Shown here: positions 12,243-18,050 of the stretch, piece by piece
Position numbering within the stretch: the first letter of the stretch is position 1
Layout of the letters: each line of letters begins with the position of its first letter
Source: Escherichia coli
Lineage (GTDB): Bacteria; Pseudomonadota; Gammaproteobacteria; Enterobacterales; Enterobacteriaceae
Reading direction: 5' to 3' (one strand)
Assembly: GCF_050920415.1 (NCBI RefSeq)
Contig: NZ_CP169309.1
Length of the DNA stretch: 64,000 bases
Translations under genes and position numbers: made by a program
The notes under the pieces: model-generated
Told to the model about the DNA's origin: nothing
What the model saw: the letters and a program-made list of their open reading frames with translations, nothing else
Databases searched by the model: none

Positions 12243-13295
12243 TTGAGTAAAAATAAACTCTCCAAAGGCCAGCAGCGCCGCGTGAACGCCAATCACCAGC
12301 GTCGTCTTAAAACGTCTAAGGAGAAGCCCGACTACGACGACAATCTGTTTGGCGAGCCTGATGAAGGTATCGTCATCAGCCGCTTTGGTATGCACGCTGA
12401 TGTGGAATCCGCCGATGGCGACGTTCACCGCTGCAATATTCGCCGTACCATCCGTTCGCTGGTGACCGGCGATCGCGTAGTCTGGCGTCCGGGTAAACCG
12501 GCGGCAGAAGGCGTAAATGTCAAAGGGATCGTGGAAGCGGTGCATGAGCGCACCTCAGTGTTGACGCGCCCGGATTTCTACGACGGTGTGAAACCCATTG
12601 CTGCCAACATCGACCAGATTGTCATTGTCTCCGCGATTTTGCCGGAGCTGTCGCTCAATATTATCGACCGTTACCTGGTGGCCTGCGAAACCTTGCAGAT
12701 TGAGCCGATTATTGTGCTCAACAAGATAGACCTGCTGGACGACGAAGGCATGGAATTCGTCAACGAGCAGATGGATATCTACCGCAATATCGGTTATCGC
12801 GTATTGATGGTTTCCAGCCATACTCAGGATGGACTGAAACCGCTGGAAGAGGCGTTGACCGGGCGCATCAGTATTTTTGCCGGGCAGTCTGGCGTCGGCA
12901 AATCCAGCCTGCTGAACGCGTTGCTGGGGCTGCAAAAAGAGATCCTGACCAACGACGTCTCGGATAACTCGGGGCTTGGTCAGCACACCACGACTGCCGC
13001 GCGGCTGTATCACTTCCCGCACGGCGGTGATGTGATTGATTCCCCAGGTGTGCGTGAGTTTGGTCTCTGGCATCTGGAACCGGAACAAATTACTCGGGGT
13101 TTTGTCGAATTCCATGACTACTTAGGTCTGTGTAAATATCGCGATTGCAAACACGATACCGATCCGGGCTGCGCTATCCGGGAAGCAGTTGAGGAAGGGA
13201 AAATCGCGGAAACCCGTTTCGAAAACTATCACCGTATTCTGGAAAGCATGGCGCAGGTAAAAACGCGTAAAAACTTTTCTGATACGGATGACTGA
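12243..13295 (+). CDS. rsgA: Ribosome small-subunit biogenesis GTPase RsgA
   Basis: 350 aa from apparent TTG start ([13 protein letters not shown]...); GTPase motifs, C-terminal Cys cluster. Confidence 0.9.
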
Positions 13296-13391
13296 CAATT
13301 AAGCTAACCGTCGTTAGAATCGTCCCCTTTTTTTCAGGATCCGGCATGTAGGCCGGATCAGGAACGACAAAACAATGGCCTGGAGGCTACC

Positions 13392-14360
13392 TTGTTAAAT
13401 TCATTTAAACTTTCGCTACAGTACATTCTGCCGAAATTATGGCTTACTCGCCTGGCGGGTTGGGGCGCAAGCAAGCGGGCAGGATGGCTGACAAAACTGG
13501 TTATCGATCTGTTCGTTAAATACTACAAGGTCGACATGAAAGAGGCGCAAAAGCCGGACACCGCCAGCTACCGCACCTTTAACGAATTCTTTGTCCGTCC
13601 GCTGCGTGACGAAGTACGCCCAATCGATACCGATCCTAATGTACTGGTCATGCCTGCCGATGGCGTTATCAGCCAGTTAGGTAAAATCGAAGAAGATAAA
13701 ATCCTGCAAGCTAAAGGCCACAACTACAGCCTCGAAGCTCTGCTGGCAGGGAACTATCTGATGGCGGATCTTTTCCGTAACGGTACGTTTGTGACCACTT
13801 ACCTCTCTCCGCGTGACTACCACCGCGTGCACATGCCGTGCAACGGTATTCTGCGTGAGATGATCTATGTGCCGGGCGATCTCTTCTCCGTTAACCATCT
13901 CACCGCTCAGAACGTGCCGAATCTGTTTGCCCGTAACGAACGCGTGATCTGCCTGTTCGATACCGAATTTGGCACGATGGCGCAGATTCTGGTCGGGGCG
14001 ACGATTGTTGGCAGCATTGAAACTGTCTGGGCGGGCACCATTACGCCGCCGCGCGAAGGCATCATCAAGCGCTGGACCTGGCCTGCCGGAGAAAACGACG
14101 GTTCAGTGGCGCTGCTGAAAGGCCAGGAAATGGGTCGCTTTAAACTCGGCTCTACCGTTATCAACCTGTTTGCACCGGGTAAAGTTAATCTGGTTGAGCA
14201 ACTGGAAAGCCTGTCTGTCACGAAAATTGGTCAGCCGCTGGCAGTATCTACCGAAACCTTTGTTGCGCCAGACGCAGAACCTGCCCCGCTTCCTGCCGAA
14301 GAGATCGAGGCAGAACACGACGCCAGCCCATTGGTTGACGACAAAAAAGACCAGGTCTAA
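13392..14360 (+). CDS. psd: Phosphatidylserine decarboxylase proenzyme
   Basis: 322-aa [18 protein letters not shown]...; apparent TTG start; LGST self-cleavage motif. Confidence 0.93.
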
Positions 14361-17705: not shown

Positions 17706-17735
17706 GGTCTTTGTGGCCGGATGAACCCATCCGGC

Positions 17736-18050
17736 TCACAAGCAAAACTGATAGCGCAGAAAAAACTGCCACAACCAGTAGCCGAAAATAGCCAGGGCGG
17801 TGGCGTACATAAACCAGCCGCGTTTTTTTCGCCACAAAGCGAACCAGAGAAAAGGGAAAAAGAGCGGTAACGTCATTATCACACCGACATCGCGAGTATC
17901 GTCATCTTCGAGATACATCAAAACATCACAGACGTTGTTAATCCCGCGTCCATCAATCATCCACTCTTTGTCCAGCGCGGAGGTAATGGTTATCCAGAGG
18001 AACGCCACAATGAACCAGATGCAGCACAAGACAAACATGCGCGCACTCAT
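17736..18050 (-). CDS. yjeO: Small inner membrane protein YjeO
   Basis: 104-aa hydrophobic ORF at the expected position between mscM and yjeM. Confidence 0.7.
   Translation of the reverse strand: MSARMFVLCCIWFIVAFLWITITSALDKEWMIDGRGINNVCDVLMYLEDDDTRDVGVIMTLPLFFPFLWFALWRKKRGWFMYATALAIFGYWLWQFFLRYQFCL

Follow-up and report, generated by a model that had tools for sequence, protein, structure and literature searches.

A lineage-conserved stem-loop in the psd-mscM leader of Escherichia coli

The rsgA-psd spacer and its promoters

The DNA analysed here, called the window throughout, is a 64,000-nucleotide segment of an Escherichia coli chromosome in which orn on the minus strand is followed by rsgA, psd and mscM on the plus strand (the K-12 coordinate is 4403752 minus the window position). 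The rsgA stop codon ends at 13295 and the TTG start codon of psd begins at 13392, leaving a spacer of 96 nt that is exactly the range, 13296-13391, given in a preliminary description of the locus and that has the same length in K-12 MG1655. Within it, the palindrome quoted in that description, GATCCGGC-ATGTAG-GCCGGATC, is present as stated at 13338-13359, which is 43 nt past the rsgA stop, 32 nt before the psd TTG and 12-18 nt past a -10 hexamer, TAGAAT. The palindrome had been placed after rsgA, and it does lie downstream of the rsgA stop, but it stands equally in the leader of psd.

The promoters of this region were dissected by Hassoun et al. (PMC8138132), who describe a sigmaE promoter inside rsgA and a CpxR-activated basal promoter, psdP2. 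The -10 of the sigmaE promoter, TCGAA, was located at 13105-13109 from a mutagenic primer of that paper. The promoter as a whole, GGAACAA-16-TCGAA, spans 13082-13109 in the 3' end of the rsgA coding sequence, and between its two hexamers several bases of the window are not those of K-12. The CpxR box is also found inside the 3' end of rsgA. The same paper puts the psdP2 start 197 nt past the sigmaE start and 41 nt past the CpxR box, distances from which the start would fall at about 13313. A consensus scan of the region predicts instead a start at about 13327, inside a C4-T7 tract, from a sigma70-like promoter whose -35, CTGACA (13292-13297), contains the rsgA stop TGA (13293-13295) and whose -10, TAGAAT, occupies 13315-13320. 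The predicted position and the one implied by PMC8138132 thus differ. Because both lie upstream of 13333, the hairpin formed by the palindrome belongs to the psd-mscM 5' leader. The features are listed below.

13257-13271, plus strand: CpxR box GTAAAaacgcGTAAA of psdP2, a direct repeat GTAAA-N5-GTAAA, and the site mutated by primers Ebm1777/1778 (PMC8138132, supplement)
13292-13320, plus strand: sigma70-like promoter CTGACA-17-TAGAAT, 10 of 12 consensus matches, the only one found by the scan
13324-13334, plus strand: C4-T7 tract directly upstream of the hairpin, the predicted start region, single-stranded in predicted folds
13333-13364, plus strand: extended stem-loop of 32 nt, made up of UUC (13333-13335) facing GAA (13362-13364), an AG/AG internal loop and the 8-bp core
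13338-13345, plus strand: GATCCGGC, the 5' arm of the core hairpin, with 66% identity over 23 genera-level sequences (columns 28-35 in alignment A1)
13346-13351, plus strand: loop ATGTAG, holding the GTAG (13348-13351) that is the source of the REP resemblance
13352-13359, plus strand: 3' arm of the core hairpin, GCCGGATC, whose pairing with 13338-13345 is kept in 85.5% of alignment cells
13360-13375, plus strand: single-stranded A/C-rich 3' flank AGGAACGACAAAACAA, 70% identical, with CAGGAACGAC near-invariant, unpaired in predicted folds
13376-13394, plus strand: invariant mini-hairpin UGGCC-UGGA-GGCUA with the Shine-Dalgarno sequence GGAGG (13382-13386), then TTG (13392-13394)

The promoter itself is deeply conserved at the locus. 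CTGACA-17-TAGAAT/TACAAT, with its -35 overlapping the rsgA stop, is seen at the same offset from Vibrio to E. coli; it is predicted at that offset in Yersinia, Pantoea and Photorhabdus loci (L046, 1427-1455; L038, 1428-1456; L059, 1428-1456) and can be seen in the spacers of Vibrio. Downstream of it come a GC-rich discriminator and a T-run, both conserved (window 13292-13334 for the whole block).

The core hairpin is made up of 8 bp, six of them G-C, with a predicted energy of -14.3 kcal/mol; extension to 32 nt brings this to -17.9 kcal/mol. Relative to shuffles the z values are -4.8 and -5.5. An inverted-repeat search lengthens the arms to 13333-13345 and 13352-13364, 13 nt each at 85% complementarity. 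In leader folds predicted from either start the hairpin is an independent module, preceded by 20 unpaired nt before the extended stem if transcription starts near 13313 and by 6 if it starts near 13327. Two longer helices, GTCGTT (13310) with AACGAC (13363) and UCGU (13320) with ACGA (13364), were considered and rejected, as each is lost in Citrobacter and is elsewhere wobble-compatible only. The mini-hairpin over the Shine-Dalgarno sequence is 97% paired in relatives and shows no covariation because its sequence is invariant. The E. coli ACAA at 13371-13374 can also pair with UUGU of the psd start codon, and among the Enterobacteriaceae leaders the start codon is TTG in 22 of 23 and GTG in the remaining one. 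GATC Dam sites lie 18 bp apart, one in each hairpin arm (13338-13341 and 13356-13359), of which Enterobacter keeps only one, and a GGATCC palindrome is formed in the 5' arm.

Palindromes are common in this stretch of DNA. With perfect arms of at least 8 bp and loops of 3-8 nt, the window holds 31 nested matches at 19 places, compared with 6.4 +/- 3.1 in Markov simulations, an enrichment of about 3- to 5-fold. That the rsgA-psd palindrome is more than chance follows from its conservation in relatives, described below, and not from single-sequence statistics. A search of 12900-13800 against Rfam, with E values up to 10, gave no relevant family match.

Pairing is kept across the Enterobacteriaceae

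Relatives were gathered by scanning one genome per species for Psd, which returned 80 loci, and the rsgA-psd order is kept across the Enterobacterales and Vibrionaceae. In the Enterobacteriaceae the spacer follows a fixed plan, in which a -10-like TAGAAT/TAAAAT is followed by CGTCCCC, T(5-7), (c)agg, the hairpin, cAGGAACGACAAAACAatGGCCTGGAGGCTAcc and TTG. The CGTCCCC-T(5-7) block is conserved in the family alignment, and CCCC-TTTT is found in most Enterobacterales. All 23 Enterobacteriaceae leaders carry a hairpin in the same place, 24-35 nt before the start codon and with energies of -10 to -18.6 kcal/mol, and its sequence differs from lineage to lineage. E. albertii and Citrobacter have the E. 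coli stem with the loops CTCTAC, CCGTAT or CCACAT. Elsewhere the stem is a different one, of the type TCCGGCGG/..CCGCCGGA in Enterobacter, ACCCGCA/TGCGGGT in Pseudocitrobacter, ACCCGC/GCGGGT in Superficieibacter, GATCCGACG/CGTCGGGTC in Kluyvera and CCGCCC/GGGCGG in Phytobacter.

The 23 sequences were aligned with MAFFT from sequence only, with no structure input (alignment A1), and RNAalifold run on this alignment recovers the hairpin helix. The full 8-bp helix is paired in 85.5% of cells, and two-sided, compensatory changes are seen at 4 of its 8 pairs. The whole 15-pair structure, which comprises three helices, has a covariation score of 0.170 where shuffles give 0.098 +/- 0.013, and none of 500 shuffles reaches the observed value, although related sequences can exceed shuffles without structure and the number of independent events is modest. 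Sliding the partner by 1-3 columns lowers pairing in that structure from 86.8% to 14-52%. The outer helix (UUC/GAA) is less well kept, at 65% paired. Across A1 identity is only 25% in the loop columns and 64-66% in the columns of the stems. If Escherichia, Enterobacter and Citrobacter are taken by themselves, it is 39% in the loop and 94-97% in the stems, with 94% for the columns of the 5' arm. Across the Enterobacteriaceae, selection keeps the pairing and not the sequence. A variable loop between kept stems points to selection acting on a folded single strand, and not on the sequence of a repeat or of a site recognised by a protein. In the operon it is the plus strand that is transcribed as sense; the wobble asymmetry, with 11 G-U cells on the plus strand against 7 G-U equivalents on the minus strand, does not clearly identify which strand folds. 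Most Enterobacterales outside the Enterobacteriaceae have no hairpin here, so the hairpin is dispensable for psd expression as such.

REP resemblance and other alternative readings

REPs act as barriers to 3' exonucleases. They are defined as imperfect palindromes of 30-40 nt with a conserved GTAG 5' of the foot (Ton-Hoang et al., PMC3333891). According to the same source, those of E. coli are of types y, z1 and z2 and number 584 copies in K-12, mostly paired in BIMEs, and binding and cleavage by TnpA-REP (RayT), whose substrate they are, need both the GTAG and a 2-nt mismatch in the stem. The preliminary description had called the rsgA-psd palindrome REP-like. Compared with eight genuine REPs taken from a 50-kb stretch of K-12 (e.g., GTAGGCCGGATAAGGCGTTCACGCCGCATCCGGCA), the likeness holds over a short distance. 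The 11-mer GTAGGCCGGAT (13348-13358) matches the head of genuine y-type REPs. GTAGGCCGGATcAGG agrees with that head at 14 of 15 bases, for a local score of 13 that was attained in 9 of 1000 dinucleotide shuffles, and the REP tail is matched by ATCCGGCA. When aligned end to end with a genuine K-12 y-REP, the element does best on the minus strand, in register, where 24 of 35 bases are identical and the score is 11. This beats 100 of 100 shuffles and all 18 other window palindromes (-1 to 8), but true REPs score 24-35 against one another. The GTAG sits in the loop, abutting the 3' arm, and not 5' of the palindrome foot, and the tetranucleotide at the REP GTAG position of the in-register minus strand is GTCG. 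Set against the 30-40 nt of a REP, the perfect core measures 22 nt, and the extended form measures 32 nt with an AG/AG mismatch and an outer 3 bp that are 65% kept.

The distribution of the element is also not that of a repeat. Of 5426 complete E. coli genomes, 5425 have a match to a 39-nt query around the palindrome (E up to 10), with a median of one place in each; 2 of 5427 region matches lie on plasmid records. One base differs from the query in 923 of the 5425 genomes carrying the region, and in four sampled genomes of this kind every change falls in the loop and destroys the GTAG, giving ATTTAG in O157:H7 and ATGTTG in the three others. Some other E. coli genomes have TTAG, GTTG or CTAC in place of the GTAG, rarer loop alleles read CTCTAC and ACGTAT, and E. 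albertii and Citrobacter have the same stem without GTAG. In an allele with three mismatches (L086) only loop bases are changed within the element, with one extra C in the upstream C-tract, and in one locus labelled E. coli (L004) a stem change keeps pairing as a G-U wobble. A Hamming scan found no canonical REP anywhere in the 64-kb window, the rsgA-psd spacer holds no inverted partner REP, and the element is never in a BIME. Spacers measure 96-97 nt in Escherichia, 97-99 in Enterobacter and 91-92 in Citrobacter, each with an orthologous hairpin, and as this length is constant among relatives no REP-sized insertion was involved. In strain GPEC1054 (L002, NZ_CM142793.1) rsgA is frameshifted, with about 22 extra bases in its 3' part, and the spacer is still 96 nt. 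The missing REP annotation in K-12 is uninformative, since the copy of the NC_000913.3 record used here carries no repeat annotation even where a REP is known to lie.

The palindrome is no REP element. Its resemblance to one is superficial and the label should be dropped: the short local match to the y-REP head stands, beyond most shuffles, and the REP identity does not, given the loop GTAG, the weak full-length alignment and an element that is single-copy and orthologously fixed. The hairpin could still be a REP by descent, an anciently inserted y-type REP that degenerated and was retained or domesticated and that no longer meets the definition. This is unlikely. In its favour are the head and tail matches, an in-register minus-strand alignment of the 32-nt palindrome that scores above shuffles and other palindromes, and the 2-nt internal mismatch of the extended stem, as in REPs; among the hairpins of the window that are not REPs, none is more REP-like. 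However, the score of 11 remains far from the range of true REPs, the GTAG belongs to the plus-strand loop with GTCG as its minus-strand counterpart, and that GTAG is polymorphic in E. coli and absent from E. albertii and Citrobacter, which share the stem. It is the letters resembling a REP that are conserved least. In other genera the orthologous hairpins have scores of 2-11 and unrelated stems such as ACCCGCA/TGCGGGT, the element is single-copy, and the spacer keeps to 91-99 nt in Escherichia, Citrobacter and Enterobacter. GCCGGAT/ATCCGGC arms also occur outside REPs, as the hairpin after mscM has them too with a REP score of 8. That hairpin, TTGTGGCCGGATGAACCCATCCGGCTCACAA (17711-17740), lies just past the mscM stop between convergent genes and has no T-run on either strand.

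A palindrome with no function, persisting by chance or through mutational bias, is improbable as well. No phenotype is attached to the hairpin, and the covariation comes from a modest number of independent events among kin sequences, which can exceed shuffles without structure. Against this, a hairpin of differing sequence occupies the same position in about 20 genera-level lineages, loop identity is at random level while the stems are conserved, and the slid controls lose most of their pairing.

The preliminary description had also proposed a likely terminator after rsgA. As an rsgA terminator or attenuator, the hairpin would halt RNA polymerase before psd, and its place supports this to a degree, being a stable GC-rich structure 43 nt past the rsgA stop. 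The reading is nevertheless very improbable and the claim fails on several counts. There is no T in the 9 nt past the stem (ACGACAAAA), the T7 run lies ahead of the hairpin, and a consensus scan of 12900-13700 gave no terminator-like sites. According to PMC8138132, native Psd and a fusion running across the hairpin (-391/+57) are both strongly induced from the sigmaE promoter inside rsgA, and mutation of the sigmaE -10 box abolishes induction of the psdPsigmaE fusion. Because sigmaE overproduction induces the spanning fusion and native Psd, polymerase reads through the hairpin. The available Term-seq tables of Adams et al. 2021 (PMC7815308) give neighbouring 3' ends, none of them at K-12 43903xx-43905xx and none labelled rsgA or psd, though low-abundance ends could be missed.

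Some other Enterobacterales do have a terminator-like hairpin and T-run in the spacer, which is a point in favour of termination at the locus in general. A GGGGCG...CGCCCC hairpin, followed by a T-run, has the psd -10 in its loop in Cedecea, Pantoea, Yersinia and Photorhabdus. The loci are the following.

L023, 1432-1451: GGGGCG...CGCCCC hairpin
L036, 1438-1460: GGGGCG...CGCCCC hairpin
L038, 1441-1463: GGGGCG...CGCCCC hairpin
L045, 1432-1461: GGGGCG...CGCCCC hairpin
L046, 1437-1461: GGGGCG...CGCCCC hairpin
L059, 1441-1466: GGGGCG...CGCCCC hairpin

This GGGGCG...CGCCCC-T(n) hairpin looks like an rsgA terminator overlapping the psd promoter. The core Enterobacteriaceae keep CGTCCCC-T(5-7) and lack the 5' arm of the terminator-like hairpin. 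A conserved rsgA terminator ending in the T7 run was considered for them and set aside, since RNAalifold gives no consensus structure upstream of the T-run in that group. In an evolutionary reading that is a long shot, the CCCC-T-run of other Enterobacterales would supply the descending arm and the U-tract of an rsgA terminator, with the psd -10 in the loop; the E. coli clade would have lost the 5' arm of this terminator and gained a new hairpin further downstream.

A DNA-level operator, at which a dimeric regulator would act on the psd promoter, or some other signal in the structure of the DNA, has very little probability: a perfect 8-6-8 inverted repeat just past a promoter is in a typical repressor position and GATC is found in both arms, but the arm sequences are replaced wholesale in other genera with complementarity kept, which is the signature of a folded strand, and PMC8138132 reports no regulator besides sigmaE and CpxR.

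Candidate roles in the leader and comparison with known systems

The element is a lineage-conserved stem-loop in the psd-mscM 5' leader, found also in the trailer of rsgA transcripts that arise by read-through or from the sigmaE promoter. On balance, the palindrome is probably an RNA leader hairpin under selection, neither REP nor terminator. A nuclease barrier or processing determinant is the role we infer to be the most likely one, though tentatively, as it carries perhaps half of the confidence placed in the selected hairpin itself; the stabiliser of mRNA named in the preliminary description is plausible in these terms. The hairpin would act on the RNA and not as a stop to polymerase. It is possible that psd-mscM transcripts gain a stable structure near the 5' end directly, by starting at the nearby promoter. 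Alternatively, RNase E may cut in the U-rich segment of longer transcripts and leave the hairpin near the new 5' end. Cleavage by RNase E classically occurs where a U-rich single strand runs into a stable stem-loop, and its downstream product starts with a protective hairpin. The hairpin could equally arrest 3'-to-5' exonucleases working back on rsgA transcripts, and of the functions proposed in the preliminary description only this one holds up.

Some observations count against such a role. Protection by a 5'-terminal stem-loop, as established in work on ompA, classically needs 0-4 unpaired nt, and both predicted values at psd, 6 and 20 nt, are above that range. A strong 3' barrier is opposed by the available Term-seq tables of Adams et al., which list no processed 3' end at the hairpin. 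Regulation by CsrA was also considered, as CAGGA flanks the hairpin on both sides and GGA is found in the loop of the Shine-Dalgarno hairpin, and was rejected since psd, rsgA and mscM are negative or non-significant in the integrated table of Potts 2017. A literature search on sRNA or Hfq and psd found no paper.

A wider reading takes the -10, CGTCCCC, T(5-7) and hairpin together as a nucleotide-sensing initiation module for phosphatidylethanolamine synthesis, and is a long shot. Start-site switching or reiterative transcription, of the kind seen at pyrC, pyrBI, codBA or fis, would make initiation within C4-T7 (13324-13334) responsive to CTP and UTP. The start position would then set the distance of the hairpin from the 5' end, and with it the fate of the psd-mscM mRNA.

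As a selected leader stem-loop, the hairpin is a previously undescribed member of a familiar class, an ordinary feature with modest consequences. A mis-annotation is corrected, in that GTAG beside GCCGGAT is insufficient for a REP call. The psd-mscM leader would also hold a selected structural element that was left unconsidered in the published promoter dissection. PMC8138132 does not mention the hairpin, and its gfp reporter fusions -196/+95 (psdP2) and -391/+57 (psdBis) both include it; psd is likewise not mentioned in the main text of Rhodius 2006. If the hairpin affects mRNA stability, it would add a post-transcriptional layer to the sigmaE and Cpx control of the last step of phosphatidylethanolamine synthesis. 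Of more interest are three side leads, namely the deeply conserved promoter over the rsgA stop, the conserved CCCC-T-run at its predicted start and the -10 in a terminator-like loop.

Compared with known systems, the psd hairpin shares with y-type REPs a GC-rich extragenic palindrome between co-directional genes, GCCGGAT/ATCCGGC arms with GTAG adjacent, and a 32-nt extended form with a 2-nt internal mismatch; the REP role as a 3' exonuclease barrier is one that it could have in common with them. It differs in carrying the GTAG inside a loop where it is polymorphic in the species, in matching at only 24 of 35 positions over the full length, and in being single-copy (against 584), outside BIMEs and fixed across genera with covarying stems. 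An intrinsic terminator is likewise a stable GC-rich stem-loop soon after a stop codon with a T-run adjacent, but at psd the T-run comes before the stem, A-rich sequence follows it, and the published fusions and protein data show read-through. A third likeness is to stabilising 5'-UTR stem-loops of the ompA type and to RNase E processing sites next to stem-loops, in which a stable, promoter-proximal leader hairpin follows a U-rich single strand. As in the ompA type, the psd hairpin folds independently and leaves the Shine-Dalgarno sequence free. Unlike them, it would stand 6 or 20 nt from the 5' end, depending on the start, in place of 0-4.
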